A stretch of DNA of 32,000 nucleotides from NCBI GenBank assembly GCA_900234795.1, contig LT962688.1, forward strand, positions 4,050,001 through 4,082,000. Direction: 5' to 3'. The translations under genes were made by a program, and so were the position numbers. The first letter of the stretch is position 1. Each line of letters begins with the position of its first letter. This document shows positions 1-27,374 of the stretch, piece after piece. The stretch comes from Methylorubrum extorquens (GTDB lineage Bacteria > Pseudomonadota > Alphaproteobacteria > Rhizobiales > Beijerinckiaceae). Below the pieces are notes generated by a model. The model saw nothing but the letters and a program-made list of their open reading frames with translations, was not told where the DNA came from and ran no database searches.

Positions 1-528
1 GGCGACTTCCTTGCTCGTGAAGCCGAAGGCGACGAACCGGAGGATGTCGCGCTCGCGCTCGCTCAAGGTTGAGCACGCCGCCTCATCCACGCTTGAACTC
101 AGCCGCCGATGCGGAGCGGTGCGTTCCGGCAATGCCGGATCGAGATAGATGCCGCCGGCATGAACCGCTCGCACCGCGCTGGCGATGTTCTGGAAGGCCG
201 ACCGCTTGAGAACATAGCCGCGGGCGCCCGCCTCAAAGGCTTGGTCGATGTAGACCCGGCTCTCATAGACGCTCAGCATGATAGCCTGGGTCCGCGTCCC
301 GGTTCTGGCGAGATGGCGAAGAACGGTGACGCCATTCATCTCCGGCATATTGATGTCGAGGATGGCGACGTCCGGCTCGTGCTGAACAATCGCCCGGTAG
401 GCGGCCGCGCCCGTTTCGACGGAGGCCACCACGACGATCTCGCCGGAATCAGCGATCAGGCTCGTCACACCGTGACGGAAAACCGGATGATCGTCCGCCA
501 GCACGACGTGGATCAGGGTCCTAGGCAT
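1..528 (-). CDS. NarL/FixJ-family response regulator (receiver + LuxR-type HTH); 3' end cut by window edge
   Basis: Hand translation of the minus strand from ATG 528..526 gives MPRTLIHVVLADDHPVFRHGV...EPDVAILDINMPEMNGV (receiver with acceptor-Asp context) ... LSERERDILRFVAFGFTSKEVA (LuxR/GerE HTH), running off position 1. The ORF is absent from the track because no stop lies in the window. Its start overlaps the kinase stop (ATGCCTAG, 521..528), implying translational coupling. Confidence 0.85.
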   Translation of the reverse strand, partial: MPRTLIHVVLADDHPVFRHGVTSLIADSGEIVVVASVETGAAAYRAIVQHEPDVAILDINMPEMNGVTVLRHLARTGTRTQAIMLSVYESRVYIDQAFEAGARGYVLKRSAFQNIASAVRAVHAGGIYLDPALPERTAPHRRLSSSVDEAACSTLSERERDILRFVAFGFTSKEVA

Positions 529-1843
529 GCCCGCTTTCCTCGACGGACCGGTAGGCGCGGGCAACGATGCTCGTGCCCCGGCCGGGAGCCGACTCGATGT
601 TCAGCGTGCCGTCGACCAGCGCCATCCGTTCACGCATGCCGAGCAGGCCGAGCTTCCCCTGGGAGACGAGACTGGTCGCGATTGCCTCGTCGGCCGCGAA
701 GCCGCTGCCGTTGTCGTCGATCGTCAGCGTGACTTGCAAAGCGCTGAACCGCAGCACGACCGACACGCATACGCCCGGCCCCGCATGTTTCGCCACGTTC
801 GTGAGCGCCTCCTGAGCCAAGCGATAGAGCGTGATCGCCGTCTCCAGCGGAAAATCGACCTCCTCCCCGACGATCTGAAACTCGGTCACGATTTCCGTCA
901 CCCGGCTCCACTCATCCACGAGCGAGCGCAGCGCGGTCACGAAGCCGAACTCATCGAGGGCGGCCGGCCGGAGTTCGAGGGTCACCCTCCGGAGCGATTG
1001 CCCGATGTCCTGGGTGTGGCGGAGAAGTTGCTCGACCTCATGGATGGCCGTTGGGCAAGACAGGCGTGACGCGATCTTTCTCAGGCCGAAGGTCAGCGTG
1101 ACGAGTTGCTGACCGGCATGATCATGGAGATCGCGCGCGAGACGCCGCCGCTCGTCCTGCCCGGCCCGGTAGAGCCTTGATAGAACGGCGTCACGCTCGG
1201 CCTCGGCACGCTGCCGTGCCTGCGCGTCCTCCTCGAGGTGGACCAGCAACCGGCTGCGCTCGGTCAGGAGCGCCTGCATCTCGATCTCACGCCGCTTCCG
1301 CTCCTGCATGACGCGCCGGACATCGTTCAGCCGCTCCGTGAGGAGGTGAAGGCGGCCCTCCAGGTTCGTCGGCGTGAGATGAAGCAGGACGAGTGGCTCG
1401 TCACCATAGGCGCGCAGGACGATGCGCGCGCCCCGGCATGGATGACGACAGGAACTCTCGGCTCCGGCGCGGACGAACACCGCGCCGGGGATCGGGTTCT
1501 CGGTCCGCGAACACAGGCTGAGGTAGCGGCTCATCCGCTCGCGATGTGTCCCCTCGACCGGCAGGGGAAGGCCGATCGCGAGGTCCGGCAAACGGTCGAA
1601 CGCGGCTGGATTGGCGTCTTCCACGAGCCCGAACCGGCCCACCAGGATCAGGGGATCCGCAACGAAGGCGAACAGCGCAGCGAAGTCGGACTCAGGCCCA
1701 GGCTCGCCGATGATACCGCCGCCCGCTGCCGGTTGTGTTCGGGTCGAGGTTGATGACGACCCGGCACTCGGACGCCCCCGCGGCGATGGTTTCGGGAAGA
1801 TCGACTCGTGCATATCCCTGACTCTCCGCGGCCAGATGCCCAC
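521..1843 (-). CDS. Sensor histidine kinase, HisKA_3 (NarX/DesK-like) + HATPase_c, PAS-like N-terminal region; true start uncertain
   Basis: The 440-aa ORF has the H-box RRLARDLHDHAGQQLVTL, the N-box EALTNVAKHAG, the G-boxes DDNGSGF and GLLGMRERMALVDGTL, and a long coiled coil before the H-box. Both ATG candidates (1843, 1813) lie inside the upstream ORF 1692..2270, so the start is unresolved (see findings). Confidence 0.85.
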   Translation of the reverse strand: MGIWPRRVRDMHESIFPKPSPRGRPSAGSSSTSTRTQPAAGGGIIGEPGPESDFAALFAFVADPLILVGRFGLVEDANPAAFDRLPDLAIGLPLPVEGTHRERMSRYLSLCSRTENPIPGAVFVRAGAESSCRHPCRGARIVLRAYGDEPLVLLHLTPTNLEGRLHLLTERLNDVRRVMQERKRREIEMQALLTERSRLLVHLEEDAQARQRAEAERDAVLSRLYRAGQDERRRLARDLHDHAGQQLVTLTFGLRKIASRLSCPTAIHEVEQLLRHTQDIGQSLRRVTLELRPAALDEFGFVTALRSLVDEWSRVTEIVTEFQIVGEEVDFPLETAITLYRLAQEALTNVAKHAGPGVCVSVVLRFSALQVTLTIDDNGSGFAADEAIATSLVSQGKLGLLGMRERMALVDGTLNIESAPGRGTSIVARAYRSVEESGHA

Positions 1844-2270
1844 ACACGTTCGCGGTCAGCATGCACAGTGAAGGGCATTTCTTTGCCAGTTCTCCGAACG
1901 GACAGCGCTTATTGCCGAGAACGATGCGCTGCTCCGATTCGTCCATGACGTAGAAATCGCTGCCGATCCGCTGCTTCATGTCGAGCAGAGCGTCGACCAT
2001 CCCTTTCCTGTCGAGTTGGCTCGCGCCACTCACCTGGAGGTACTCTTCCTGGATCTTCTCACCCACAGCGAGGCCGACCAAGCTAATGAAGCTGCCAGCT
2101 TCGCTGGATCCGACTGTATCCTCAAACAAGGACCCCATTGTCGTCACCACGAGATCCATGAATATTTCCCGGTCCAAGCGAATCTGCGAACCGCAGAAAT
2201 CACCCCGCGAATCTACCAAGCTCTGTTCCACTGCCGCCTCCCAAGCAGGGCCACCCTCTACGGATATCAC
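1692..2270 (-). CDS. Cys-rich small-ligand/redox sensor-like protein (MOD1 / V4R-like domain), possibly the N-terminal part of the downstream kinase
   Basis: The 192-aa ORF has the C-terminal pattern RCPFGELAKKCPSLCMLTANVCGHLAAE...TIAAGASECRVVINL (6 Cys in total). I recognise this as the 'methanogen output domain 1'/4-vinyl-reductase-type fold signature, from memory only. G+C is 52-55% by my count over 2041..2220, against 72% in the kinase at 1141..1200. Confidence 0.55.
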   Translation of the reverse strand: MISVEGGPAWEAAVEQSLVDSRGDFCGSQIRLDREIFMDLVVTTMGSLFEDTVGSSEAGSFISLVGLAVGEKIQEEYLQVSGASQLDRKGMVDALLDMKQRIGSDFYVMDESEQRIVLGNKRCPFGELAKKCPSLCMLTANVCGHLAAESQGYARVDLPETIAAGASECRVVINLDPNTTGSGRRYHRRAWA

Positions 2271-2402: not shown

Positions 2403-3749
2403 TCATCGCTCAAGGAATGCGCGACTAAATTGGTCTTGAAGCGGCTTCATCAGGTAGGACATTGCTGTTCTCTCATCCGTAGCGACCTGAACTTCGACGG
2501 GCATTCCAGGGATAAGGCGGGCCGAGCCTCCCAGGCGTTCAATCTCGCCATCCTTGAGCTCGACATGCCCGATATAGAACGCCTCGTCCCGTGGGCCCTT
2601 CGTCGTCGAGGGCGAGACGTAGGTCAGCACTCCCTTGAGTTCGGGGGTGGTGCGCTGGCTGAAGGCGGTGAAGCGGACCCGGGCCGCGCGGCCGACGCCG
2701 ATCTGGTCGATGCTGGTCGGCGGGATGCGGATCTCGATCTTAAGCCGCGCGTCCTCGGGTACCACGGTCGCCAGGATGTCGGCGGGGGTGACGACGCCGC
2801 CAACCGTAAAGGTCTTCAATTCGTGCAGGATGCCGGTCACGGGGGCACGGATCTCCGTGCGCGTCAGCCGGTCGTCCAATGCCACGCGACGGTTGCTCAG
2901 CTCTGCCGCCTTGGCATCGACCTGACTGAGCTCGCGCTGTGCCTCGGTCCGCGCGGTGTCTGCGATGGCGAGGATCTGGACGCGGATCTCGCTCGTCCGC
3001 GTCTTCGCCCGCGCGATGGAGGCTTCCAACGACCCCTGCTCGCCGGCCAGGCGGTGCTTGTCGCGGGTGATCGGCAGGAAGCGGGAACTCTCGTAGAGCT
3101 GCTTCTCGACGAGGATCGATAGCTTGCCATGCTCGGTGGTGAGGACGGCCAGTTCGTCTCTCTTGGCGTCCCGCTGCTTCGTGAGGCCGGCGATCTCCTC
3201 AGCGATCTGCCCGATCTGGAGTTCGAGCTGCTGGCGCTGGCTGTCACGGCCGGCGAGGTTGCCCCGGAACAGCCGGAGTTCGCCCTCCAGGATCGACTGC
3301 ACCTCGGCGCCCTGGTGAAGCAGGGCTTGCGGGAAGCTGACCTCGCGCTGCCCGTCGCGCTCCGCCAGGAGCCGCGCCTTCTTGGCGGCGAGTTCCACCA
3401 ATTGTCCCTTCACGATGGCGAGTTCCGCGCGGGTCTGCGCGTCGTCGATTCTGAGGAGCACTTGGCTGGCCGTGACCGGCTGCCCATCGCGCACGAGGAT
3501 CTCGCCGACCACGCCGCCGTCGCGGTGCTGCACGGACTTGGCTCGCTGATCGACGGCGACGGATCCGGAAGCGAGGATCGCGCCGCTGAGATCGGTCGTG
3601 GCGGCCCAGCCGCCGACGCCGCCGACGAGCGCCGCGCCGAAGATGAACCCGGCGACGATGCGCGGGCCGACGGAGAACGCGACGTTCGTGCGGGATTGCG
3701 GTTCGTGCCGCCGCAGGGGGCGCGGCATCCGATCGGGAGATGTACGCAT
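2403..3749 (-). CDS. HlyD-family type I secretion periplasmic adaptor (membrane fusion protein)
   Basis: The 448-aa ORF has an N-terminal cytoplasmic stretch plus one TM helix (IVAGFIFGAALVGGVGGWAA), a lipoyl-like VQHRDGGVVGEILVRDGQPVTASQVLLRIDD, long coiled coils, and the C-terminal LIPGMPVEVQVATDERTAMSYLMKPL typical of PrtE/AprE/HlyD adaptors. A strong SD (GGAGAAGGA) precedes ATG 3749. Confidence 0.9.
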   Translation of the reverse strand: MRTSPDRMPRPLRRHEPQSRTNVAFSVGPRIVAGFIFGAALVGGVGGWAATTDLSGAILASGSVAVDQRAKSVQHRDGGVVGEILVRDGQPVTASQVLLRIDDAQTRAELAIVKGQLVELAAKKARLLAERDGQREVSFPQALLHQGAEVQSILEGELRLFRGNLAGRDSQRQQLELQIGQIAEEIAGLTKQRDAKRDELAVLTTEHGKLSILVEKQLYESSRFLPITRDKHRLAGEQGSLEASIARAKTRTSEIRVQILAIADTARTEAQRELSQVDAKAAELSNRRVALDDRLTRTEIRAPVTGILHELKTFTVGGVVTPADILATVVPEDARLKIEIRIPPTSIDQIGVGRAARVRFTAFSQRTTPELKGVLTYVSPSTTKGPRDEAFYIGHVELKDGEIERLGGSARLIPGMPVEVQVATDERTAMSYLMKPLQDQFSRAFLER

Positions 3750-3770: not shown

Positions 3771-5992
3771 TCAAGTGTGGAATGTCGGCGGTTCGGGCAG
3801 CGGCGCGATCGTGAAGCGCAGCAAGTGCTCGCCATCGAGGACGACGGTGGTCTCGTAGGCGTCGTTATGGTCGAGGTCGGCCGAGACGACCGTGCGGTCC
3901 CGGCCTTCGGAACGATCGAACCGGCACTGGATCCCGGTCGGTGCATCGCTTTCGCCCCGGAGCGCCTCCGCGAGCGGGCGCCCGGCCGCGGTCTCCTCCT
4001 TGAACAGGGCGTAGCGGACCAGATCGATGTAATCGCCGACGGAGAAGTCCGTGATCTGCACGGTGCGGGTGCCATCGCGCGGCTCGGCCGGAGCGGCGAA
4101 TGCGTACACGTCGTCGCCGCCGCCGCCGGTGAGCACGAGATCCCGGCCGCCCACCACGAAGCGGTCGTCGCCCGATCCCGCGATGATCGCCTCGACCGAG
4201 GTGATCCGGTCGAGGCCGAGCTCCTGAGCGGACACGGTCTCGTTCCTCAGGTCCACCACCAGATCGACCGTGGCCGCCGACAGGTCGAGCGTGTCCCGCC
4301 CCCGCGCCGCCGTCGACCGTGTCCTCCGCGCTGTCGAGGGCGAGGATGATCACGTCGTCGCCCGCCTCCCCCGAAACGAGGTCACGCCCGGCCCCGTCCG
4401 AGAGGATGTCCGCACCCTCGCCGCCCTGCAGCCGATCGTCACCCGCATCCCCGACGAGCACGTCGGCACCGGTGCCGCCGGACAGGTCGTCGGCGCCGGC
4501 CGCGCCGTAGAGGCTATCGTTGCCCTCGCCGCCAAGGAGGAGATCGTCGCCGTCGCCCCCATCCAGGATGTCGCGCCCCCTCGCCGCCATCGAGCAGGTC
4601 GTCGCCCGCCTCGCCGAACAGAAGGTCGTCGCCCGCCTCCCCGAACAAGCGGTCGTGACCCGCCCCGCCCGAGACCCGATCCGCGCCCGCCCCGGCGAAC
4701 ACGACGTCGTCGCCCGGCCCGGCCAGGACCGTGTCGGCGCCGTCGCCCGCGATCACGTGGTCGCTGCCGCTGCCGGCATCGACGAGGTCGTCGCCACCGC
4801 GGGCGTCGACATTGTCGTCTCCCGCACCGGCCGCGATGTCGTCCGCGCAGGGTGTGCCGAGGATGAGGTCGTCCCCGTCCGTGCCGCCGATCAAAGCCCG
4901 TTCGAGGACGGTCAGATGAGCCGTACGGGCGACCGAGAACTCGCCGTCCGTCACCGCGTAGGTGACCGTGACCGGACCGGGCGCGTCGGCGTCGAACACC
5001 CAGCCCGAGCCGTCCGCCGTCACGGTGCCGGAGGAGACTCGGACGTCGCGCACGCTGAGTGCGTCTCCGTCCGGATCGCTGGCGCCGCGCAGGAGATCGC
5101 TCAGGGCGATGGTGAGGAGTGCGCAGCCCGCGACATCCCCGAGCTGGACCGGGCCGTTCACCACGGGCGAGCGGTTGCGTTGCCCCGCCGGTCCGTCGTC
5201 CCGGCCGCGCGGCGGCGTCGCCGGATCGACGGGACGCGGATCGCCGCCCGGCGTGGAGTCGGGAGGGATCCGGACGCCGCCGTCCGACGGCCCCGGACCC
5301 TGTGGGTTCGATCCGCCTTGCCCTGTCGAGCCTTGCCCAGTCGAGCTTTGCTCGCTCGAGCCTTGCCCGACCGAGCCTTGATCCGGCCTGTCGGCCTTCT
5401 CCTCTCCCAGCGGTCGGGGGGCCGGCTGTGCCTCGTCGCCGGGCTCCTGCGCATCCGCTTCCGGGTGGAATGCGTCCCGTGGCCGGCCGCCGCCGCTCGG
5501 CTGCCCGCCTCCGCGCCCGCCCGATCCGGCTGCGAGGGAGCCGCCGTTGTCGTTGATCGGCTGGGGGATGACCGGAGAGGCCTTGAAGTCGCCGAGGTCC
5601 GGATGCGCGTCGGGCCTTGCGAAGCGCAGCCCGCGCGCGAGCAGTTCGTGCCCATCGTCGAACAGGGACATGCCGGATTGCAGAACCGGGGATGGCGGTT
5701 CGGCCAGTGGCTTCGGTGCCTCGGCGGCCTTTGCAGGGGTGGGCGCGGCGAGCTCCTCGGAATGGACGAGGCGCAGGGCGTCGGCGCGTGCCGCCACGAT
5801 CTCCGGGTCCACTTCCTCTGCCAGGGTCGCGCGGGGCAGAAGCAGGGATTTGAGGTAGGCGGCCACGGACGCGACCGCCACCGCGGCATAGTAGGGGACG
5901 CCGGATCGCCGGTCTGCGCTGCGCGAGACGTAACGCTCGGCACCCTCGGGCGCGTCCCGCCCGGGCTTCGTGCCCTTGATCTCGATCGTCAT
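3771..5992 (-). pseudogene. Membrane-anchored cadherin-like / RTX Ca-binding protein (~739 aa if repaired), interrupted by two +1 frameshifts at G5 runs
   Basis: Three track ORFs are consecutive pieces of one protein: 4514..5992, 3865..4590 and 3771..4259. RTX nonapeptides run straight across both junctions. Removing one G at 4576..4580 gives ...[16 protein letters not shown]..., and removing one G at 4299..4303 gives ...[18 protein letters not shown].... The N-terminus has a TM helix (VPYYAAVAVASVAAYLKSLLL). This is followed by a Pro/Ala linker, GQGSx pentapeptides, a cadherin-like module (NRSPVVNGPVQL...DPDGDALSV...TVTYAVTDGEF), RTX repeats and a C-terminal tail. ATG 5992 overlaps the ABC gene stop (ATGA). 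Confidence 0.75.
5311..5385 (-). repeat. About five imperfect 15-bp tandem units encoding G-Q-G-S-x pentapeptides (in-frame, inside the RTX/cadherin gene)
   Basis: The plus strand reads ...ccttgccctgtcgagccttgcccagtcgagctttgctcgctcgagccttgcccgaccgagccttgatcc.... The minus-strand translation is DQGSVGQGSSEQSSTGQGSTGQGGS. Confidence 0.6.
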
Positions 5993-7755
5993 GCGGGCAC
6001 CCGCTCCGGCATGGAGCGCTCCCTGTTGTCCTGGGCGCTGTCGGGCTTGGCCGCACCGTCGCGGGCGGCCTTGCCGAGGATCGCCTCCTTCGGGCCGAAT
6101 GCCGTGAGCTTGCCGTCCTGGATCACGGCGATCAGATCCACGGCCGCCAGCACGCTCGGGCGGTGGGCGATCACGATCGCGAGGCCGCCGCGGGCACGCA
6201 CGCCCTGGATCGCCGCGGCGAGCGCAGCCTCGCCCTCGGCATCAAGATTCGCGTTCGGCTCGTCGAGGACGACGAGGAAGGGATTGCCGTAGAGCGCGCG
6301 GGCGAGGGCGATCCGCTGCCGCTGCCCGCCCGAGAGCGCCGTCCCGAGCGGTCCGAGTTCGGTCTTGTAGCCGTCGGGCATGCGCAGGATCATCTCGTGC
6401 ACGCCCGCCGCCTGCGCGGCCGCCACGACCAGCGCCGGATCGCTGTCCTCGGCCAGGCGCGAGATGTTCTCCTCGACCGTCGCGTCGAGGAGGCAGACCT
6501 CCTGAGGCAGGTAGCCGATCATCCCTCCCAGGCTCGCCTCGTCCCATTGCGGCAGGTCGGCCTCGTCGAGCCGCACGCTGCCGCGCAGCAGCGGCCAGAT
6601 GCCGGTCAGCGCGCGGCCGAGGGTGGTCTTGCCGCCACCGCTCGGTCCGATGACGCCGAGCGCCTGCCCGGCCTTGAGCTCGAACCCCACATCCGAGAGG
6701 AGCACGCGACCCGAGCCGGGGGCCGCGACCGTGATGTGGCCGACCCTGAGCGACCGGTGCGCCGGCGGCAGCGTCATCGGCGGCTCGGCGGCGGCCAGGG
6801 CGATCACGGTCTCCTTCAAGCGCCGGAAGGCGGTCCGCGCGGCCAGGATGACCTTCCAGTTGCCGATCGCTTGGTCGATGGGCGCCATGGCGCGGGCGGA
6901 GGTGATCGAGGCTGCGATGATCGCCCCGGCGGAGAGTTCGCCGCCGATGACGAGGTAGGCGCCGAGCCCGAGCACGGCCGATTGCAGGATCATGCGCAGG
7001 ACGCGCGCGATCGCCCCGAACGTGCCGCTGATGTCGGTGGTGCGGGTCTGCAGGTCGAGGTGTTCGTCGTTGGCGCGGCGGTAGCGGTCCACGGCCCGGT
7101 CGGCGAAGCCCATCGCCTTGAGCACGTCGGCGCTGCGCGCGTTCGAGTCCGCGATGGCGTTGCGGGCCACCACGGCCTGCTGCGTGGCGCCGGTCCAGCG
7201 CCGGGTCAGGAGTTCGGCGAGGATGGTCAGCAGCGCGAGGACGACCGCCCCCGCGACGGTGAGCGCGCCGAGATAGGGGTGCAGCATGTAGACGAAGACG
7301 AGGAAGACCGGCACCCACGGCAGGTCGAACAGGGCGACGAGACCGGGGCTCCCGAGGAAGCCCCGCACCGTGTCGACGTCGCGGCCGCGCTCCATCGCCT
7401 CCGCGGTCGAGAAGCCGAAGCGCGGCATGTCGATCCCGACCCGCTGCGCCAGCGGAGCGACCCGGCGGTCGAACTGCGCCCCGAGGCGAACCAGGATCTG
7501 CGAGCGGAGAACGTCGAACAGGCCCTGCGCCAGGTAGAGTCCGACGGCGAGGATCGACAGCCCGACGAGCGTCGGCAGGCTCCCGCTCGGCAGGGCGCGG
7601 TCGTAGACCTGCAGCATGTAGAACGAGCCGGTCAACGCCAGGATGTTGATGATGCCGGACATCCCGAACAGGAAGACGAAGGGCCCCCGAACGCTTTGGG
7701 TGAGCTGCTCGGCGCATCGCTGCTGAGCGAGCTTTTTCTGATCTCTGGAACGCAT
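5989..7755 (-). CDS. Type I secretion system permease/ATPase (PrtD/AprD/HasD type, no N-terminal C39 peptidase domain)
   Basis: The 588-aa ORF begins directly with the TMD (FLFGMSGIINILALTGSFYMLQVYDRALPSGS, typical of the PrtD family). It has Walker A GPSGGGKTT, the ABC signature LSGGQRQRIALARAL and Walker B FLVVLDEPNANLD. The SD GGGGGAGAG precedes ATG 7755. Confidence 0.92.
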   Translation of the reverse strand: MRSRDQKKLAQQRCAEQLTQSVRGPFVFLFGMSGIINILALTGSFYMLQVYDRALPSGSLPTLVGLSILAVGLYLAQGLFDVLRSQILVRLGAQFDRRVAPLAQRVGIDMPRFGFSTAEAMERGRDVDTVRGFLGSPGLVALFDLPWVPVFLVFVYMLHPYLGALTVAGAVVLALLTILAELLTRRWTGATQQAVVARNAIADSNARSADVLKAMGFADRAVDRYRRANDEHLDLQTRTTDISGTFGAIARVLRMILQSAVLGLGAYLVIGGELSAGAIIAASITSARAMAPIDQAIGNWKVILAARTAFRRLKETVIALAAAEPPMTLPPAHRSLRVGHITVAAPGSGRVLLSDVGFELKAGQALGVIGPSGGGKTTLGRALTGIWPLLRGSVRLDEADLPQWDEASLGGMIGYLPQEVCLLDATVEENISRLAEDSDPALVVAAAQAAGVHEMILRMPDGYKTELGPLGTALSGGQRQRIALARALYGNPFLVVLDEPNANLDAEGEAALAAAIQGVRARGGLAIVIAHRPSVLAAVDLIAVIQDGKLTAFGPKEAILGKAARDGAAKPDSAQDNRERSMPERVPA

Positions 7756-7815: not shown

Positions 7816-10800
7816 TCAGAGCGTGAAGTCGGCGGCCGTGGGCGCCGTATTGCCCTTGATGGCGAGCTTGAATTCCGGGGAGGCATCGCCGGCCGTGTTC
7901 CCCTGGACGACGACGTAGTCTCCGTCGTCGCGCGTCTCCTGCGTCACCAGGAGTTGTCCGACCCCCGTGAAGGCCGCGCCGGTCGCGAGCGTGAAGGCTT
8001 GGTTCCCGGCCTGCCCGGCATCGGCGTCGATCGCGCTGAGGTCGATCTTGTCGCCCGGCCGGAAGCCCTCGATGGTGTCGCCGTTCGCCGCGCCGGCCGA
8101 GCCGAAGCGGTAGGTGTCGCTGCCCTCGCCGCCATCCATCACGTTCGCGGCGTCGCTCGCCGTGATGTCGTCGTTGCCGGACCCCGTGACGACGTTCTCG
8201 ACGCCCCAGAGCACGTCGCGACCCGACTGGGTGCTGGTCGCACTGCCGCGCCCAGCCAGACCCGTCCCGAGGTTGACCGCGATGTTGGCGGTGATGGCCG
8301 ACATGTCGAGCGTGTCGCTCCCCAGCCCGCCCCCCATCTCGTCGCCCCAGTAGGTGTCGTCGCCGTCACCGGTCTCGGCCACGAACAGGTCGTCGCCCTC
8401 GCCGCCGATGACCGTGTCCCGGCCGGCGCCGGCGGTCACGAGGTCGTTGCCGGCTCCGGCGAGGATGCGGTCGTTGCCGCCATCGCCGTACACCATGTCG
8501 GCGCCGCCGCCGCTGAGGACATCGTCGTCGCCGTCCCCGGCGAACACCACGTCCCGGCCCTCGCCGGCATCGACGAAGTCGTTGCCCGCGCCGGCCCGGA
8601 CCACGTCGGCACCGCCGCCGGCGAGGATGTTGTCGTCGCCGTCCAGGCCGAGGATGGTATCCGCCCCCGCCGTGCCGTTGAGGACGTCTCCGTTCGCGCC
8701 GCCGGCGATCACGCCGGGCACGTGGTTGACGGGCGGAGTGGTGCCGGGACCGGTCCCGGGCCCGTCCTCGTCGCCGTCACCCCCGCCGACCGGGTCGGTC
8801 GTCCCGTCTCCGTCTCCTTGCCCGTCGTCCTCGTCGTCGCCGGGATCGCCCCCGCCGCCGACAGGGTCGGTCACGCCGTCGTCATCGTCCTCGTCCCCAC
8901 CGGCATCGCCGCCACCGCCGACCGGATCGGTCGGGCCGTCCTCGTCCTCGTCGGGATCGCCACCCACGGGATCGGTGTCGCCGTCGTCGTCATCATCGCC
9001 GGGCTCCGTCCCCGGTCCGTCCTCGTCGGACAGCTCGAAGATGTGTTCCGGCAGGACCGTCAGGCCGGTGTTCCGGGCAACGATGTCCGAGAAGCCCTGG
9101 CCGTCGACGACGTTCTCGTAGAAGTCGAAGTTGTCGAAGCGCTCGAGGTAGTAGAAGCGGTCGCCGTCCTGCAGTCGGTCGAACTGCTCGTGCAGCACGA
9201 CCCAGAAGGTCTGGCCGACGACGCCGTTGTTGATGTGCTTCTCGGCAAGCCCGCCGACCCAGAGATCGAGCCGGTCGATCCCCTTCACGACACCGGTCCC
9301 ATCGGCCTGCATGGCGATGGCGATGTCGCCGTTGATCACCCGGAAGGCTGCGATGTCCGCGGCGGCGAGGACGAGGTCCGGGTAGGCTTGCCGGAACTGC
9401 GCGATCACCGCGTCGCTGAGGCCGTTGCGCGCCTGGAAGTCCTCCCAGGAGGCGTAGGGCGAGAGGTCGCCGCCGGCGAAGCCCACCGCGTCCCGGATAT
9501 AGGGATTGGTGGAGGCCGCCAGATCGGCGCGGACCTGGTTGAGGGTGCCGAGGCCCACGTCCCAGCCGCGGGCCACGTTGAAGGCGAACAGGTCGGCCCG
9601 AATGCGCACGAGGTCGTTGCGAACCGCATCGACGATGTTGAAGTCGACGTCCTCGGCCGCCTGCTCGATGGTGCCGCCGATTATGCCGCCGACGCCGTAC
9701 TGAGCGTAGCCGGGCTGCGGCACGTAGCCGGGAGGCAGCGGCGCGGTGAACACCGAGGGATCGTTGCTCGGGTTGAGGAAGGCGTCGAACAGGCTGACCG
9801 GAATGGTCTCGCCGTCGGCGCCCTTCACGTTCAGCGTCTGCCCGATCAGGGAGTGGCCGAACCGGAACACCGCCGCGGCGAACTCGTGGCTGATCGCGAC
9901 ATCCACGCTCGGATCATAGGTCTCGAACCCGTGCGTGCCGTCCGAGCGCAGACCGCCGATCAGCGTCTCCAAGTACTCGTCGAAGACGACACGCTGATAC
10001 TCCGCCTCGTTGACCATCTTGGCGGCCTGGAACACCTGCTCGGGCGTGCCCTCGAAGCCGGATTCGAGGAGCTTCTCGACGTGGTAGTTGTGGTTGCGCG
10101 CCCAGACCGTGTGGATCGAGGTGAGGGCGAAGTTCTCGTTGGCCCGCCCGTCGCCGGCCACGAAGTGGTCGAGGACGCTGATGAAGGGGTTGGTGTCGAG
10201 CAGCAGCGGATGGCCCGAGCCCATGAAGTTTCCGACGAGCTTCGTGAGCACCTGCGGGTCGAAGGCGCCGGTCTCCGTGTTGAACAGGGTGCCGGTCACC
10301 CCCTCGGACAGGGCGAAGTTCGTGTAATAGGTCCGGAAGCTGATCGGCCCGTCCGGTCCGGCGAAGATGGTGTCGGCCTGCCAGTGATGGTTGACCAACT
10401 CGCGCAGCGTCGGCAGCAGGTTGAAGGCGGGGTTGGACGGGTCCGGTGCCCCCGCCAGAAGCCGCATACCGACGCCCTGCGCCCCGTCGCTCTCTCTCAG
10501 GAACTGGCCGACCAGCGCGTTGGAGCCATAGGCTTGGTTCTGGTCGATGTAGGGGGAGGTCTGGTTCTTGTGCTGCGGCACGCCGTTCGCATCGACGGCC
10601 ATGACGGTGCCGCGGGTGAGGTCGGCCGGGTTGTTGGAGCCTGGTGCCCCGCCGCCGGGCGCACCGATCACGATCGAGCCGTTGCCACCCTTGGGCAGGA
10701 AGTCGAGCCCGTGGTCGATGTACTGGCCCATCGCCATGAAGAAGATGTTGGCGTCGTTTCCGGCCTTGGGCAGGCCGGCCTCCTGCGTGCCGAGGATGTT

Positions 10801-13800
10801 GCTGATGGTGCGCGCGTCGAGGCCGTCGAAGATCGGGTTGATGGCCCTGTTGCCGTTGGCGTCGGCCTCGCCGTAGCGGGCCTGGGTCAGGCGGATGAAG
10901 GCTTGGTCGGCGCTGCCCCAGGTCGGGTGGTCGAGGTTGTTGCCGTGGCCGCTGAGCTCGCGGTAGCCCGTCGGCACGTCGTCGTCGCCCGCATTGTCAG
11001 GGCGCTGGCCGCGCACCAGCGCCTCCAGCCCGTCGATGTCGGCTGCCGTGTAGGCGAAGGCGCCGGTGACGCCCTCGCCGTGCCCTCCGTCGGCGCCTGC
11101 ATCCACCGTGATCCGCGGCATGCCGCCCGCGGCCGAGAAGGTGATGGTATGCGACCCGTTGGAGAGGGTCGTCATGCCGTTCGCGCCTGCGGCGGCGACG
11201 TAGTCCGCCCGGTTCGAGCCGGCCGGCAGTTCGATCACGTCCTGCGGCCGCAGAGTGCCGACGATGGTGTCGTGCCCCCCGTTCGAGCGGAAGACGATGC
11301 GGTGGGCCGAGGTGAGGGCGGCCATGTCCACGGTGTCGTCGCCCGATGAGCCGTCGATGGTGATGGTGTTGAAGTTGAGGCTGGTGCCGGTGAAGCTGCC
11401 GATCACCTGAATCGTGTCGCCGCCATTGGCACCGCCGTTCTGGCCCCCGGGCGACGTCACCTGGAGCGTGTTGACGCGGATCTCCTCGACGTTGTCGAGT
11501 TCGGCGACAATCGCGGCGGCACCCGTGCCGTTGCGGGTGATCACGATCTCGGTCGAAGCGGCGAGCTGCGCCTCCGTATTGCCCGCGACCTGGAGCCAGG
11601 CTGACCGGCTGTAGATGCGGAAGGTCTCAGGCCCCGCGGTGCCGTTCAACTGGTAGGTATCGGTGCCGGCTCCGCCATCGACGCGGTCGCGCCCGTCGGT
11701 GCTGACTTGAATGAACGTATCGTTGCCGCCGCGGCCGTTCAGGATGTCGTTGCCGGCGCCACCGTTCATCGTGTCGTTCGGCTGGATCCCGAAGAGGGCG
11801 GTGTCGGCGCCGTTTGCGATGTCGTCACCGGCCGTCCCGTTGAAGGTCCTGTTGAGCGCCGTGCCTGTGAAGGTGTCGCCGACGACGCCGGTGGGCGCCG
11901 AGAACAGCTCTTCCGGATTTCCCGCGCCGTCGGTGAAGCTCACCCGCAGCCTCAGCACGTCCCCGACCTGGGCCTGGCCGGGCGTGTAGTTGAGCGTGCC
12001 GGCGGCGTTGCCGGCGATATCCGTCCAGGTCTGGCCGTTATCGCCCGATTGCTGCCAGCGCAGCGAGAAGGTCCCAAGACCGTCGGCGTCCTGGATCGCG
12101 GCGACCAGCGCGCCGAGCGGCTGGCCCTCCGTCGGCGAAACGAGCCCGTTCGTCGGCGTTGGGTCCGTGACGACGGGCGCCCCGGTCGCGACGGCGTTCA
12201 CGGCGACCTGCTCGACGTTCTTGAGCTCGGCGATGACGATCCCGTTGCGCACGACCACGGTCTGCGTGTCGTCACGGAACGACAGGTTCGCGAACTGCGC
12301 CCGGGCCTGGGCCAGCGTGAGCTGCTGGACGGGACCGGTCCCGTTCATGATCCGGAAGCTGTCCGTGCCGGCGCCGCCATCGACGAAGTCGCGGCCGTCG
12401 CCGGTCCGCCACAGGACGTTGTCGTTGCCGGCTCCCGCGAAGACGAGGTCGTTGCCCGCGCCGCCGCTGAGCGTATTGTTGCCGGCCGTCCCGACCACGA
12501 TGTCGACGGCCGCCGTGCCGTTGGCGACCAGCGTGTAGGGCGTGAGGTCGTTGCCCATCTGGATCTGCTCGATCGTGGTGAGCGTATCGACGCCGTCGCC
12601 CTCCGCTCCGAGGTTGTCGCTGACGACGACCTCGCCCTGCGCGTTCCGCTCGAAGCTGTAGGCCGCGATCGGTCCCGAGTAGATGGCGGTGTCGGTGCCG
12701 GCGCCGCCGATCAGACGGTCGTTGCCGTGCCCGCCGGAGAGTTGGTCGTCGTCGTTGCCGCCGTCGAGCGTGTTGTTGCCGGTCCGGCCGATCAGGGTGT
12801 CGGCGCCATCGTTGCCGAGGAGGGTGTCGTCGCCCGCGCCGCCATCGACCCGGTCGTCGCCGCTGCCGGCGTAGATGGCATCGTTGCCGACATCGCCCTC
12901 GATGTCGTCGTCGCCGTCGCGCCCCAGGATGACGTTCGGGCTCGTGGAACCCGCGATGTCATCGGCGGCGGCGGTTCCGACGAAGGCGGACTGGACGGAG
13001 GCCGTCTGCTGCAGGCCGGTATTGCCGGCGACCGTGCTGGTCCAGTTCGCGACCACCCGGATCTCGACGCCGGTCGCTCCGGTCGGCGTGAAGAAGGTGC
13101 CCCCGTTCGTGACCTGGCCGTCCGCGCCGGTCACGTTGCGCCACTGCCCGTTGTCGGCCAGCACCTGCCATTGCAGGGTCACGGGCCGGGTGGTCGCGTT
13201 CACACGGTTCACCAGCGTCGCGACGAGTGTCGAGGAATCGTCGCCGTCCGCGTCGAACGGTCTGATGGTGAGGCTGTCGAAGGGCTGGTTGAGAACCAGC
13301 GCGACGTCCGCCGTGCCGTCCGCGAAACGCAGCTTCTCGATGTTGCGCAGCGTATCCGTGCCGTCATCGACGGCGGGATTGGTCAGCGTGGTGTGGGTGA
13401 CGGTGAGCGTGCCGTTCGCCGCGCGGGTGATCGTGTAGTTCGCCCGGATGTCGTTGAACACGGCGGTGTCCACGTCCGCCGCCGTCGCTCCGGTGGTGAT
13501 CACCTCGCGGACGATTGCGAGCTGGGTCGGGCTGATCACCCGGTCGATCATCAGCTCGAAGAGCGACTTTCCGGCCCAGCCGCGCGCCTGATTGGCGGCG
13601 CTGTCGTCGAAGACGTGCTTCAGGCTGTCGGCCGTCGCCATCTCCTGGCCAGCATCCGCAGGATTGCGGATGCTGATGCGCACGTTCAGCCAGCGGTCGC
13701 CGTCGAGGATGTCGTTGCCACCGTTGCCCTGGAGCGTATCGTTGCCCGCGCCGCCCAGCAGGATGTTGCCGGCCTCGAAGAACTGCTGCCCGGAAGCAAG

Positions 13801-16800
13801 CGACACGATCTGGTCGAGGCCCGCGATCCGAGCGATGCCGGCCGCGTCGAGCCCGTCGTTGAAGAACACGCCCTCGTTTGCCGCCGTGATCGGCGCGCCG
13901 GCAGGCGCCTCGGCATCCGCGTTGGCGGCCGCGGTCCGGTCGTCGCCGATGAGCGTGTCGTTCAGCCGCCAGCCGGAGAGACCCTCCGTCTTGTCGAAGC
14001 GGTTGCGCAGGATGTCGGCTTCTTCGGTGGTGAAGATCGGGATGCGCATGTCGGCATTGGCCGCGATCTGGTTGCCCTTGTAGATCGCCCAATCGAAGCC
14101 GAACATGCCCTCGTTGCGCATCACGCTCTCGCCCTGGACCATGATGTCGTCGCCGGACTCGCCGTCGAAATCATGCTCGTCGCCCCCGGCAAACATGACG
14201 TCGTGGCCCTTGATGGCCGAGTTGAAGAACAGTTCCGAGTTGTCGCCGGCGGTGGTGTCGAAGCCGCCGCCACCCTCCATCCAGTCGTCGCCCTCGTTGC
14301 CCATCAGAAGGTCGGCGTCGTCGCCGCCGATCACGAAGTCATCGCCCTCGCCGGCAAAGACTTCGGTCGCATCGACGCCGACGAAGATCGCGTCCTTGCC
14401 GCGCCCGCCCATCAGGATGTCGATGCCGTTCGAGTTGGCGATGACGTCGTTGCCGTCCTCGCCCTTGAGGAAGTCGCCGGTATCGCCGGAATCGGTGATG
14501 ATATCGTCGCCCGCTCCGCCGTTCACGAGATCGACGCCCGCGCCCGCCTCGATCCGGTCGTCGCCTGCATCCCCCCAGATTCCGTCATCGCCGAAATCGG
14601 TGATGATGGTGTCGTTGCCGTCGGTGCCACCCACCAGCACATGCTCGCCGCCGGTGAAGCGGAGGTAGTGCCCGGTGGCGAAGGGCTGATTGAGCGCGGC
14701 CGGATCGACGACGGTTGCGTCGAGGTCGGCGGCCGGGCTGGCGATGGACTGCCCGGTGCGCAGGACGTTGCCGGCGCCATCGCGCAGGAACGGGTCGGCG
14801 GCCGGGTCGTAGCCGGGCGTCTGCGCTGGGGTCAGATCGGACCGGTAGGCCGGCGCCGTCCGCACGAGTTCGATGTCGTCCACGAGGATCTGCGCATCGC
14901 CGCTGCCGGTGTTGCGGATCTCCAGGCGAAGCTGAAGGCCCGCAAGCGCCGACGGGACAACACCCGTTGCGAGGGTGAAGGTGCCCCACTGCCCGTCGGC
15001 CGGCTCCGTCAGGGTCAGCGTCCCGAGGGTCACCGGGTTTGCCCCGCCGACCGCCACGAGGCGCGCCTCGGCGCCCGGCCAGGTGAAATCGGTCCGGTCC
15101 CCGACCTTGAAGCTGTAGGTGTAGCCGACGCCGGCCTGGAGGGTCGTCCCGCCCTCCTGCGAGAGCGTGGCGCCGCCGCGCAGCCACACGACGTTGGCGC
15201 CGTCGCGGCCGGCGGGGTCGACGACCGCGTCGGCCGGCGCGAAGAGGCCGCCGACGCCCCCGGCGATGGTCCAGCCGGCCGGGTTCGTCGTGGTGTAGTT
15301 GCCGTTGCCGTCGAGGATCACGCCCTCCTGGCCGGCGACCAGCGCCAAGCCCTCGAAGCTGCCGTTGGCGACCGCCACCGCCTCGGGGACGGACGAGCCG
15401 GGAGCGAAGCCGAGGCGCCCATCGGCACCGATCCGGAGCACCGGTGCGTCCAGCATGTCCGCCTGGGTCAGCGCGATGCCGAGCTTGGCTGCATTCGCCT
15501 TGAGATCGGCCCAGGTGACGGGGTTGCCGGCGCCGCCGACCCCCTCCTCGCTGCCGTCCACGAGCGCGCCCGTGGGGCTCCCGTCCGCACCGTAGCGCCG
15601 GACCAAGGCGTTAATCGAGGCGTGGTAGCCGCTCGCGCCCTCGTCGGCCGCGGTGCCGGGATCGTCGCGCACGACCTTGCCGAGGCCCATCGCCTCCAGC
15701 ACGGGGTCGTTTCCGGTCGGGTCGCGGCCGGGGGCGGCGCCGTTCTGATCGAGCTGGTTGGCGGCGTTCACCTCCAGCTCGAAGTCGTAATCGGCGAAGG
15801 CATCGACGCCGATATGGCGGGGCACGATGTCGTCCGCCGTGCCGCGGATGCCGTCAGGCCCCGGCAGCGACAGGCTCGAATTGGCGAGCATGATCTTCGA
15901 GAAGGAGTTCTGCTCCAACTCGTTGAGGAAGTTCTGCCCCTGGACGCGGCTGAGATAGTAGAACCTGTCGGCATCCTGCAGGTTCTCCATCTGGGCTTCG
16001 AAGATGGCGTTGAAGGTCGAGCCCAGCATGCCGCCGAACGGCATCTGCTTCTCGGCCAGGCCGCCGATCCAGAGATCGACCGCGCCGAAGCCCGTTTCCC
16101 GCCCGGCCCAGCTCCCGCGCGAATTGAGGTAGTCGAGGCGGTCCGTCGGTGCGCCCTCGCCGCCGAAGACCAGGGCCATGGCCGCGTCGCGCTTGGCCGC
16201 GAGCGTCGTCGCGGCGACAACGGTGCCGTGGGTGCCGTAAGCGGCGATGAAGTTCACCACCGAGAGCGGGTTCTTCAGGTTGGCCGCCATCTCCACCCAG
16301 CTCGTGTAGGGGGTGAGGAAGGTCGAGCCTGTCGCGGCGTAGAGCTGGGCTCGTGCCTCGTTGAGCGTCGGCGTGCCCGTATCGCGGCCGCGGGCGATGT
16401 TGATGGCGGCGAGATCGAGCGGCAGGCCGAGCAGATTGTTGCGCAGGGCACCGACGACGAACTCGTCGATTTCGCTGCCGCGTTCGATGGTCATGCCGCG
16501 CATGATCGCGGCCGCGCTCTCGTCGTGGGACAGGCCGCCGTCGTTGTCGAAGGCCAACGGATTGAGGAAGGCGTCGATCAGGCCGAGGTCGGCATCGAGC
16601 GCCTGCCCGTCCGGCCCGAGCCGCGGCATGTTCTCGGTCAGCATCGAGTGGCCGAAGCGGTAGACCGTATTGGCGAACTCGGCGAAGATCGACGGGTCGA
16701 TCTCGGTCACCGGATTGAACACGAAAGGATCGACCAGCGGTTGGATCTTGCGGGCGAATTCCTCGAAGACGAGGTGCTGGTACTGCATCTCGGTGGCGAA

Positions 16801-18573: not shown

Positions 18574-18694
18574 GGCCACCTCCCAAATACGGATACAGGC
18601 GAGCATCAGCCGGCCTGGTGATGGACGGAGCGCCCCTTGTCGCCGGGGAGGTCTCCAAACTGGCCACAGCATTCCATCAGCCGCGCAAATTGGC

Positions 18695-23115: not shown

Positions 23116-23804
23116 CAGTAGGCTCCGGCGTTGTCGACGTGGAAATGGTAGAGGGTGCGGGCCGAGCCGTAGCGGCGGAATTCGCTCGGGCTCACCTCCC
23201 CGGCGAGGCCGGCGGCGGCGAGCTTGTCGGCGAGTTCGCGCAGGTGCTCGTCGCGCATCTCTTTCTCGACGCAGTCGGCGCCGAGGCTTTTCACCGAGCC
23301 GCGCACGTAGAGCTTGGCCTCGTAGAGCGAGTCGCCGAGCGCCTCACCGGCATCCCCGAGGACGGTGAGCGTGCCGGCCTGGGCCATGAAGGCCGACATG
23401 TGGCCGATCGAGCCCTTCACGACGATGTCGACGCCCTTCATCGAGATGCCGCAGCGGGCGCCCGCATTGCCGTCGATGATGAGCATGCCGCCATGGGCCG
23501 TGGCGCCGGCCGACTGGCTGGCATCGCCCCGTACGTGGACGAGGCCGGAGATCATGTTCTCGGCCACGCCCACGCCCGCATTGCCGTTGACGAGAACGGT
23601 CGCGAGCTTGTTCATGCCGGCGCAGTAATAGCCGACATTGCCCTCGATCTCGACGGAGACCGGCGCGTCGAGCCCGGCGGCGATGGCGTGGCGCCCGTCC
23701 GGACCGGTGACGGTCCAGTGGGTCTCGTTGGTGTCGGGCCGCAGGGCGTGCAGGGCCCGGTTCAGTTCGCGCAGGGGCGCGGATCGCAGGTCGAAACTCG
23801 GCAT
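23115..23804 (-). CDS. mgsB: GXGXG-motif protein (glutamate synthase alpha-subunit C-terminal domain-like); N-methylglutamate synthase subunit B by context
   Basis: The ORF shows the repeating beta-helix pattern VEIEGNVGYYCAGMN...VNGNAGVGVAENMISG...VRGDASQSAGATAHGG...IDGNAGARCG. I prefer the start at ATG 23804 (MPSFDLRSAPLRELN), which overlaps the mgsA stop by 1 nt. Confidence 0.85.
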   Translation of the reverse strand: MPSFDLRSAPLRELNRALHALRPDTNETHWTVTGPDGRHAIAAGLDAPVSVEIEGNVGYYCAGMNKLATVLVNGNAGVGVAENMISGLVHVRGDASQSAGATAHGGMLIIDGNAGARCGISMKGVDIVVKGSIGHMSAFMAQAGTLTVLGDAGEALGDSLYEAKLYVRGSVKSLGADCVEKEMRDEHLRELADKLAAAGLAGEVSPSEFRRYGSARTLYHFHVDNAGAY

Positions 23805-24739: not shown

Positions 24740-24912
24740 CGGCGCCGCCCCGTCCGTTCGATCATTGTCGAGAGGGATCGCACGCTCCGCCGGACGCGTC
24801 AACCAACAAGCACGAAAATTTCCTCTCATGAAACATGTCGCTGATAGCCGGAGGGCTGGCCGCGACGGCACACCGGCTCTGTCATCGCTTCGATGATGCT
24901 CGCGGCGACGCC

Positions 24913-27362: not shown

Positions 27363-27374
27363 GACTTCCTTGGC

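Follow-up and report, generated by a model that had tools for sequence, protein, structure and literature searches.

Analysis of a 32,000-nt window of Methylorubrum extorquens DNA (assembly GCA_900234795.1, contig LT962688.1) pointed to an RTX protein encoded between the genes of an exporter pump and its adaptor, which gene order and conservation indicate to be a conserved accessory of a type I secretion system (T1SS) cassette that specifically serves a MopA-type haem peroxidase. The gene lies on the minus strand (5992..3771, stop codon 3773..3771), as do all features described below, and after repair of two reading-frame breaks it encodes 739 aa with a transmembrane (TM), cadherin and RTX arrangement; intact orthologues are 721-746 aa long. 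Immediately upstream is the gene of a PrtD-type T1SS ABC permease/ATPase of 588 aa (5989..7755; TIGR01842, 652 bits versus a cutoff of 510), while the gene of a 448-aa HlyD-family T1SS periplasmic adaptor (2403..3749; TIGR01843, 341 bits) starts 21 nt past the stop codon, and so the gene is indeed embedded in a T1SS, as the preliminary description had it. The presumed main cargo is a giant MopA-type animal-haem-peroxidase/RTX protein with an ORF of 3618 aa (7816..18672), in which Pfam recognized An_peroxidase (E 8e-127), HemolysinCabind and HpiC1-like regions, and which was identified with the use of the literature on MopA-type peroxidases (PMC6247904, PMC3396595). C7CGY0 in PMC3396595 has the same length as this peroxidase ORF, but an origin of the sequence in strain DM4 was rejected, the DM4 ABC protein having a different sequence. 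The neighboring genes encode a histidine kinase, a response regulator, MetOD1 and metabolic functions.

Related loci were gathered with an alignment of the cadherin domain, and co-occurrence was counted in those loci that had sufficient upstream DNA. The data showed that the order peroxidase, ABC, embedded gene, HlyD, all on one strand, was kept in each of the 53 loci with enough flank (53/53), and that the embedded gene is located between pump and adaptor genes in more than 50 bacterial species. The cassette was found in Methylorubrum, Methylobacterium, Microvirga, Phyllobacterium, Mesorhizobium, Rhizobium, Ensifer, Pararhizobium, Bosea and Halomonas/Vreelandella, and plasmids of Agrobacterium and Paracoccus carry annotated genes in the same order. 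The start codon of the gene overlaps the stop codon of the ABC gene in an ATGA (5989..5992), and the same overlap is present in 54 of 54 orthologous loci, which indicates translational coupling to the ABC gene. Judged by this strict co-occurrence, the link between the embedded gene and the peroxidase appears very strong. It is the gene context which is new here, and literature searches found no published work on the embedded protein. The previously described MopA and PepA "long peroxicin" cassettes likewise consist of an animal haem peroxidase with RTX cargo character, followed by ABC and HlyD genes (PMC6247904, PMC3396595). However, in the peroxidase cassette of this type on a Plesiomonas plasmid the embedded gene is absent and the HlyD gene directly follows the ABC gene, which suggests that the embedded protein is accessory to the cassette, not part of its core, and a lineage-specific addition. 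Rhizobium leguminosarum 3841 appears to be without the peroxidase cassette, because the only type I systems listed for it are PrsDE, ToaDE, TobDE and BltDE, and no known type I substrate is located within 10 kb of toaDE or tobDE.

In the deposited sequence the gene is divided into three ORF pieces in three different frames (4514..5992, 3865..4590 and 3771..4259), which together span 2222 nt, that is 3n+2. When the G5 runs (plus-strand C5) at a first site, 4576..4580, and a second site, 4299..4303, were each shortened by one G, a single 739-aa ORF resulted; the length of about 739 aa reconstructed earlier was therefore right, while the residue repaired at the second site was corrected to R (GGAGRDTLD). 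Both sites fall inside the part coding for the RTX beta-roll, and both are G4 in all orthologues. In the alignment to an orthologous contig (16 kb, 98.2% identity) these two insertions were the sole indels that were not a multiple of three, and the extra G's were unique to the GCA_900234795.1 assembly among the sequences compared. Because the gene is intact, with 734-746 aa, in at least 14 named genome entries of the M. extorquens group, the comparison indicates that the three pieces are one gene, as had been supposed, and that the breaks are probably assembly errors; the check for separate genes elsewhere came out negative, the orthologues having a single intact ORF. The gene is thus probably intact in the living strain, and the three "genes" of this assembly should be merged or flagged.

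We regard it as somewhat unlikely that the gene is a genuine pseudogene in this strain, in which two real +1 slippage mutations would cut the product at 492 aa and remove the C-terminal export region. Such a reading would agree with the presence of both insertions in the deposited sequence, where the middle fragment is annotated as a CDS of its own (SOR30927.1), and with the fact that the only frame-breaking indels in 16 kb are both in one gene, for which the chance is ~5% if errors hit G4 runs randomly. On the other hand, the source assembly (probably strain TK 0001) was made from MinION (nanopore) reads of 2017 with Illumina short-read polishing (PMC5824006), and both sites are homopolymer extensions within 27-nt tandem RTX repeats, where short-read polishing is weakest. 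The remaining gene is also free of further damage and 97% identical to intact orthologues, and the at least 14 related entries argue in the same direction. An exact look-up of the 492-aa fragment gave no record, and neither the G5 nor the G4 version of the first frameshift site was matched in metagenome pattern scans, which therefore favor neither reading. Programmed frameshifting or phase variation was rejected, because the G4 sites are read through in all orthologues, because runs of G5 are too short for switching by slippage, and because it would require two separate events.

The N-terminal tail consists of residues 1-31 (5900..5992), rather than of 22 polar residues as first described, and contains a conserved MxI[ED][IV]KGTK motif, with basic residues beside the helix that follows. 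This hydrophobic helix, VPYYAAVAVASVAAYLKSLLL (residues 32-52, 5837..5899), runs from the invariant P33 to the conserved YLKS, and the AlphaFold2 (AF2) model, the Wimley-White scale and the charge bias mark it as a putative N-in single-pass anchor. In the AF2 model of P0001, a 97%-identical orthologue, residues 32-50 were helical, while residues 1-30 and 52-271 were disordered. The helix is the best 19-residue Wimley-White window of the protein, with a value of -1.8 kcal/mol, its Kyte-Doolittle value of 1.54 is borderline, and its uninterrupted hydrophobic core extends over the 14 residues before K48. Such weak hydrophobicity is seen in Methylorubrum, whereas the values for most genera (Wimley-White -7 to -9 kcal/mol) denote a strongly hydrophobic helix. 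The preliminary description had singled out the helix as unusual, and it proved to be kept family-wide: the Wimley-White value of the hydrophobic window was below 0 in 54/54 orthologues, and in 46/48 proteins K/R were more numerous ahead of the helix than behind it, in accordance with the positive-inside bias. The tail was 28-34 aa long across 48 orthologues, and most orthologues have prolines at both ends of the helix, P33 and a second one at 52-53, which gives it a length of 19-20 residues. The conserved positions are I3, K6, S30, P33, A44, Y46-L47-K48-S49 and N147-D148-N149, of which I3 is invariant, K6 invariant or nearly so, and L47 and S49 nearly invariant.

The helix is followed by an acidic Pro/Ala/Gly-rich linker (residues 53-272, 5177..5836; AF2 pLDDT <50), which corresponds to the Pro/Ala-rich spacer described before. 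In the family as a whole this linker measures 135-223 aa, never below 135, with a median net charge of -16, and it contains a moderately conserved segment of ~45 aa that ends with an invariant NDN motif (residues 147-149, 5546..5554). The GQGSx pentapeptides noticed earlier were recovered by TRF as a repeat with a 15-nt period in 4.4 copies (5315..5380); their number differs between strains, for example P0001 and P0002, and they are absent outside Methylorubrum. Residues 1-271 had no match in Pfam or NCBIfam. Of 1.84 billion cluster representatives, a profile of the N-terminal module matched only 250; among the best 150 of these 250, nearly every match began at protein residue 1-3, and all 60 full-length matches (60/60) carried Cadherin_5 and RTX regions. 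Hence, the module defined by MxIE/DVKGTK, the helix ending in YLKS, and NDN seems to occur only in this architecture.

The part of the protein beyond the linker has, for the most part, features of the kind seen in T1SS substrates. The cadherin-like module that had been recognized by eye is supported by a Pfam match to Cadherin_5 (PF17892; residues 273-362, E 2e-13, 50.3 bits versus a cutoff of 26.5), which was present in 60/60 family members, and by an AF2 beta-sandwich at residues 273-365 (4898..5176; pLDDT 87-94 in P0001) which contains a calcium-type DPDGD motif as well as a conserved Cys. Residues ~366-640 (4071..4897) form the RTX nonapeptide beta-roll (HemolysinCabind, PF00353, E 2e-38; AF2 368 to ~640 in P0001, pLDDT 97-98), with a Peptidase_M10_C match at residues 559-662 and 27-nt periods detected by TRF at 4516-4721. 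The tandem GGxGxDxUx repeats identify the embedded protein, as judged from its sequence, as an RTX protein with a calcium beta-roll. The earlier count of about 15 nonapeptides holds for those that fit a relaxed consensus (~15), while the roll as a whole has ~28 nonapeptide-length strands. The C-terminal capping tail was also recovered, as residues ~641-739 (3774..4070; AF2 cap at 644-730 in P0001), and is a putative T1SS target region. It is similar to the C-terminal end of the peroxidase encoded in the same cassette (E 2e-5), and the family-wide Smith-Waterman comparison of the two C-termini gave a score of 60 versus 28 for shuffled sequences. In the PDB the beta-roll and cap matched only T1SS RTX proteins (CyaA, PrtC, serralysin); the likeness of the cap to T1SS substrates may reflect the needs of beta-roll folding and not a secretion signal. 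Two cysteines, C292 and C384 in P0001 numbering, are nearly invariant, and the median net charge of the protein across the family is -127. The C-termini of the embedded protein and of its own peroxidase were no more alike than those of non-cognate pairs, and the cognate ranks were uniform; the idea of their co-evolution was dropped, as there was no cognate-specific signal. Homophilic pairing with a cadherin domain of the peroxidase was ruled out, because only some peroxidases (seen in Rhizobium) have such a domain and the one in the window has none.

The explanation that we tentatively favor, and consider possible, is that the embedded protein is an inner-membrane-tethered T1SS passenger which holds its cadherin/RTX module on the cell. 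In the mechanism that we infer, the overlap of the start codon with the stop codon of the ABC gene would couple synthesis of the protein to that of the ABC transporter. The basic N-tail would remain cytoplasmic, and the helix from P33 to YLKS would insert into the inner membrane in the N-in orientation, probably packed against transmembrane helices of the ABC protein or the adaptor. The very acidic cadherin-like, RTX and cap part would be exported C-terminus first via the cognate ABC/HlyD/TolC-type channel and would fold on external calcium. About 80 extended residues would span the tripartite conduit of ~27 nm, and the disordered linker of 135-223 residues would be long enough to remain threaded through it. 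The cell-bound surface module might then contact the secreted peroxidase and retain or organize it at the cell surface. It is rather doubtful that the passenger never leaves at all, with the helix held beside the ABC protein and the linker threaded through the ABC-adaptor-TolC conduit, as an envelope-spanning tether that displays the cadherin/RTX module and captures or positions the peroxidase on the surface.

The closest analogy to the tethered passenger is provided by the retained RTX adhesins LapA, MpIBP and DvhA, which are also T1SS substrates whose C-terminal part carries RTX repeats and a region for export, and in which an N-terminal element is proposed to stop full release, leaving a linker in the channel (PMC10990149). 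In these adhesins, however, retention depends on a folded, beta-rich module with spaced glycines, which sits on the periplasmic side and plugs the outer-membrane channel, while AF2 showed no such module in residues 1-271 of the embedded protein, where one predicted alpha-helix and disorder are found instead; a membrane helix would thus replace the folded periplasmic plug. The adhesins also differ in having a di-alanine LapG cleavage site and the regulators LapG and LapD, whereas no conserved AA site adjoins the NDN motif in the family alignment, and no LapG-like (BTLCP protease) or LapD-like genes were found by annotation or Pfam in the cassette neighborhoods examined. In addition, the adhesins exceed in size, by a factor of 10 to 20, the embedded protein, whose gene is located between the ABC and adaptor genes. 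The proposed topology, with a short cytoplasmic N-tail, one TM helix and a large extracytoplasmic part, is shared with HlyD-family adaptors (PMC8277102), but the body of the embedded protein is cadherin-like and RTX, and it had no HlyD-type Pfam or NCBIfam matches (barrel-sandwich, hairpin, beta-barrel).

The usual fates of T1SS cargo are release or, for LapA-type adhesins, retention by a folded periplasmic plug. If the tether is true, an RTX protein with an inner-membrane-type anchor, made alongside the pump, would be a third use of T1SS, a new way of anchoring a protein at the surface by means of a T1SS, and possibly a fourth T1SS component. It would also bear on the surface location and maturation of the peroxidase, including haem loading after unfolded export; MopA-type peroxidases have been implicated in bacterial Mn(II) oxidation (PMC6247904). 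The tether hypothesis is directly testable, because the family is well defined and occurs in genetically tractable bacteria such as M. extorquens PA1 (ABY30063.1), Rhizobium, Agrobacterium and Paracoccus.

Several observations argue against the tether. The 14-residue core and the Kyte-Doolittle value are equally compatible with the h-region of a Sec signal and with a short membrane helix whose Lys snorkels. Co-translational capture of the N-terminus by SRP/Sec would put the C-terminal part in the periplasm, beyond the use of the T1SS, and a permanently threaded chain would take up the channel that the peroxidase needs as well. The possible origin of the cap likeness in folding needs and the lack of a cognate-specific likeness between the C-termini also count against it. 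The Plesiomonas cassette further suggests that the embedded gene is dispensable for secretion as such.

It is unlikely, though consistent with several features, that the embedded protein is a Sec-dependent periplasmic protein, in which the N-terminus would be a signal anchor or an extended, possibly cleaved Sec signal, and the linker, cadherin domain and RTX roll would be translocated to the periplasm, folded there with calcium, and serve as a T1SS accessory. The short hydrophobic core has basic residues just upstream, and by eye L47-K48-S49, with the nearly invariant L47 and S49, would fit the -3/-1 rule of signal peptidase I. The long conserved N-extension recalls the extended signal peptides of autotransporters, C292 and C384 would suit an oxidizing compartment, and a position with overlapping codons between ABC and adaptor genes is typical of machine subunits. 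However, the n-region is as long as 31 aa, no conserved helix breaker and no AXA-type c-region were seen by eye, and the 19-20 residues between P33 and Pro 52-53 in most orthologues are more anchor-like than signal-like. Nearly all features after the linker are of the T1SS-substrate type, and an RTX protein of the periplasm would, to our knowledge, be without precedent. One role that can be pictured for such a protein is to stabilize or gate the adaptor-outer-membrane channel assembly for very large cargo. A Tat signal was ruled out because the twin arginine is not conserved, and a prepilin-type or double-glycine leader because of pattern misfit and an ABC protein without a C39 domain.

A further explanation, which we consider improbable, is that the embedded protein is an ordinary released co-substrate, passing whole, including the helix, through the T1SS like RTX cytolysins, and acting outside the cell. 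Ordinary T1SS substrates are expected to lack an N-terminal hydrophobic targeting or anchor sequence, while here helix 32-52 was present in 54/54 orthologues. Hydrophobic helices are, however, present in the N-terminal half of RTX cytolysins, which are exported nevertheless, so the premise of the preliminary description that T1SS substrates are free of such helices is too strong. The RTX repeats, acidic composition and T1SS-type C-terminus, the own exporter encoded next to the gene and the weakly hydrophobic Methylorubrum helix agree with release. On the other hand, release leaves unexplained the positive-inside pattern, the fixed 28-34-aa N-tail with its invariant motif, the strict start/stop overlap with the ABC gene and the linker of at least 135 aa throughout, and in most genera the helix is strongly hydrophobic. 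Serralysin, lipase and CyaA-type substrates share the nonapeptide beta-roll, the C-terminal cap, the acidic composition and a PrtD/HlyD-type exporter, but they have an N-terminal catalytic or toxin domain and no conserved N-terminal anchor, and none of their genes is inserted, with overlapping codons, between those of pump and adaptor. In a released protein the cadherin-like domain could, for example, bind polysaccharide or a surface, and the helix a membrane or a partner. The rhizobial cadherin-like (Ra/CHDL) Rap proteins and RL2961/pRL100309, from related bacteria, also have calcium-dependent cadherin-like domains and are exported by a T1SS (PMC9298526, PMC2275737). The Rap proteins are released, which agrees with the co-substrate reading, but their exporter is the general PrsDE system, and they have neither the N-terminal hydrophobic helix nor a link to a peroxidase. 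Their example suggests polysaccharide or cell-surface binding as a possible function of the embedded protein.

The embedded gene occupies 5992-3771 of the window on the minus strand, where it is split into three overlapping ORF pieces, each in a different frame (4514-5992, 492 aa; 3865-4590, 241 aa; 3771-4259, 162 aa); its span of 2222 nt equals 3n+2. The DNA alignment with four orthologous loci showed that two homopolymer runs of the window, read as C on the plus strand (4576-4580 and 4299-4303), each contain a surplus G, while four G's were present at both sites in all four loci, and deletion of the two surplus bases gave a 739-aa protein. Over 16 kb aligned with an orthologous contig (98.2% identity), these insertions were the sole indels of a length not divisible by three. 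Compared with the closest orthologous contig, the window also has in-frame indels of 6, 6, and 3 nt (5498-5501 and 8953-8997); they fall in low-complexity sequence rich in Gly or Asp, within the linker and the peroxidase, and represent ordinary repeat-length variation. No break affects the peroxidase ORF (3618 aa), the ABC gene or the HlyD gene of the window. Named genome entries of the M. extorquens group with an intact embedded gene (734-746 aa) number at least 14, among them PA1, CM4, and DSM 13060, and the two surplus G's explain the breaks, which bears out the preliminary description in treating the pieces as one gene. The 241-aa middle piece exactly matches SOR30927.1, a "protein of unknown function" of Methylorubrum extorquens, which is the only member of its sequence cluster. 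The M. extorquens TK 0001 genome is a MinION assembly polished with MiSeq (PMC5824006). Because both surplus bases are homopolymer extensions within 27-nt tandem RTX repeats, where short-read polishing is weakest, the frameshifts are probably an assembly error, and it is rather unlikely that they are genuine and mark a strain-specific pseudogene. Programmed frameshifting and phase variation were rejected, as the orthologues need no shift and the G runs are too short for slippage-based switching.

The search with Pfam profiles placed Cadherin_5 at residues 273-362 (E 2e-13, which exceeds the gathering score) and Peptidase_M10_C at residues 559-662, and it also detected HemolysinCabind (E 2e-38), while residues 1-272 had no match in Pfam or NCBIfam. 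The AlphaFold2 model, made on the 97%-identical orthologue P0001 with an alignment of 60 sequences, contains a 19-residue helix (residues 32-50) between disordered regions (1-30 and 52-271), followed by a beta-sandwich (273-365), a beta-roll that runs without a break from 368 to about 640 (pLDDT 97-98), and a C-terminal cap (644-730). Hence, the cadherin-like module, the RTX repeats and the capping tail of the preliminary description were all recovered. The GQGSx pentapeptide repeats that it listed are also real, with a 15-nt period and variable copy number, and occur in Methylorubrum only. Structure and sequence searches of the PDB matched solely RTX proteins exported through type I secretion systems (T1SS), which were CyaA, PrtC, serralysins, lipases, AlgE modules, and RsaA. 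The last ~160 residues are similar to the C terminus of the co-encoded peroxidase (E 2e-5 in the window), with a mean Smith-Waterman score across 42 species of 60 versus 28 for shuffled controls. The family is extremely acidic, with a median net charge of -127. Of two nearly invariant cysteines, one (C292 in P0001, C290 in the window protein) lies in the cadherin-like domain, and the other (C384 and C382, respectively) where the RTX block begins (GTxCAD); they are unusual in a T1SS substrate and might form a disulfide.

The main new result is the family and its cassette context, in which an RTX protein with a conserved membrane-anchor-like N terminus is built into T1SS cassettes for peroxidase export and is specific to them. 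Among 5.8 billion proteins searched, full-length relatives were detected in Methylobacterium, Microvirga, Phyllobacterium, Rhizobium, Ensifer, Bradyrhizobium, Bosea, and others. In a locus survey, which used one genome per species, a cadherin-domain profile scan and tblastn mapping of neighbors, the order peroxidase, PrtD-type ABC, embedded gene, HlyD on one strand was present in all 53 loci with sufficient flanking DNA, counting one apparent exception that was settled by Pfam. All 54 extracted copies of the embedded gene begin with a start codon that overlaps the stop codon of the ABC gene. Almost all members start with MxI[ED][IV]KGTK, followed by a 28-34-residue tail, a hydrophobic stretch that opens at an invariant proline and closes with YLKS, an invariant NDN motif near residue 150, and a linker before the cadherin-like domain (135-223 residues). 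A profile of the N-terminal 150 residues retrieved just 250 cluster representatives among 1.84 billion proteins; the best 150 of these nearly all aligned from protein residue 1-3, the few offsets being mostly short fragments, and all 60 full-length matches tested contained Cadherin_5 plus RTX. The N-terminal module is therefore found together with both this architecture and the peroxidase cassette. The same four genes are also found on annotated Agrobacterium and Paracoccus plasmids. A divergent member on Agrobacterium tumefaciens pAtCFBP5877a (locus L077, 28506-30851) is without the MxIEVKGTK start and separated from the ABC gene by 46 nt; it has retained a hydrophobic helix along with the cadherin/RTX body and the NDN motif. 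Halomonas and Vreelandella supply two of the 53 loci (Halomonas sp. SpR8 and Vreelandella aquamarina), each with the whole four-gene cassette and, in the embedded gene, YLGS instead of YLKS; the presence of the cassette in these gammaproteobacterial Halomonadaceae implies its horizontal transfer from Alphaproteobacteria. On a Plesiomonas shigelloides plasmid (locus L079, 23372-26433), which provides a natural "minus" control, the peroxidase and ABC genes are followed directly by HlyD without the embedded gene, and hence the embedded protein is dispensable for T1SS function as such. Public annotation calls the protein merely "cadherin-like domain-containing protein" or "calcium-binding protein," and literature searches for it found no paper; the family is sharply defined, widespread, unstudied, and directly testable.

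In favor of an anchor, no other stretch of 19 residues was as hydrophobic as this segment in any of the 54 orthologues, and in most of them prolines limit it to 19-20 residues. On the Wimley-White scale it is weakly hydrophobic in Methylorubrum (-1.8 to -3 kcal/mol) and strongly so in the rest of the family (-7 to -9 kcal/mol); its Kyte-Doolittle value of 1.54 in the window protein speaks against an anchor. The ten residues before the helix contain more Lys and Arg than the ten after it in 46 of 48 proteins, which, like the 19-residue helix of the AlphaFold2 model, speaks for an anchor. The conservation of A44, Y46, L47, K48, and S49 suggests that the segment is adapted to specific packing rather than being generically greasy. 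A conserved helix with a positive-inside pattern, a tail of fixed length and translation coupled to that of the ABC gene argue that the N terminus is a cytoplasmic or inner-membrane element made in a fixed ratio with the pump. The extreme acidity, the T1SS-type beta-roll and cap, and the location inside a T1SS operon make export of the C-terminal part by the T1SS of its own operon the simplest reading of the sequence. These observations could tentatively be combined into a T1SS-tethered passenger, with its N terminus in the inner membrane and its C-terminal module outside. The linker would remain in the conduit as a threaded chain, with the cadherin/RTX module folding on calcium outside the cell; as the protein is strictly paired with MopA-type peroxidases, the module on display could hold or organize the peroxidase at the surface. 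About 80 extended residues span a tripartite conduit, and even the shortest family linker, of 135 residues, exceeds this length. Two other explanations, each somewhat less probable than the tethered passenger and equal to one another, were considered. The protein could be a Sec-inserted or cleaved periplasmic accessory, as the uninterrupted hydrophobic core of 14 residues has a signal-peptide length, and L47 and S49 would suit the -3/-1 rule for signal peptidase; the T1SS-type C-terminal part points instead to export by the T1SS. Alternatively, it could be an ordinary released co-substrate, with the helix acting after export; the protein has the repeats and the linkage typical of RTX T1SS substrates, but it differs from them in having an N-terminal hydrophobic element. 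The feature noticed in the preliminary description is thus borne out, and its reading as an anchored RTX protein has partial support: the anchor-like helix is conserved and the gene lies in a T1SS cassette, while the membrane topology of this putative anchor is what we infer from them.

The proposed working of the embedded protein is similar to that of LapA-type retained adhesins (PMC10990149). However, it has neither a predicted beta-rich retention module nor a di-alanine site, and the cassette neighborhoods examined showed no genes resembling LapG or LapD, which places it outside the LapA-type family.

The giant neighbor is a MopA/PepA-type "long peroxicin" (PMC6247904, PMC3396595, PMC4420034). 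The real start of its ORF (7816-18672, minus strand) is probably the second in-frame Met (MAVKLNLQDL...), 33 codons in, from which the plasmid homologues align; the first 33 residues resemble an ORF-extension artifact. An HpiC1-like domain (residues 1098-1269) lies between its two peroxidase regions. In some genera the peroxidase itself carries Cadherin_5, the domain type of the embedded protein, as in Rhizobium leguminosarum (locus L004, 948-8168), while the window peroxidase does not. A sensor kinase and response regulator pair adjoins the cassette downstream of HlyD in Methylorubrum (521-2270, minus strand, with a MetOD1-domain gene), and just upstream of the peroxidase in Agrobacterium (L077, 15443-17625) and Paracoccus (L078, 15484-17581), which suggests that the cassette has a dedicated two-component regulator. 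Upstream of the peroxidase gene, the window contains N-methylglutamate pathway genes (about 21772-30793), encoding glutamate-synthase-like, GXGXG, and glutamine-amidotransferase subunits and a sarcosine-oxidase-alpha-like protein, in agreement with the route by which M. extorquens TK 0001 is reported to grow on methylamine.
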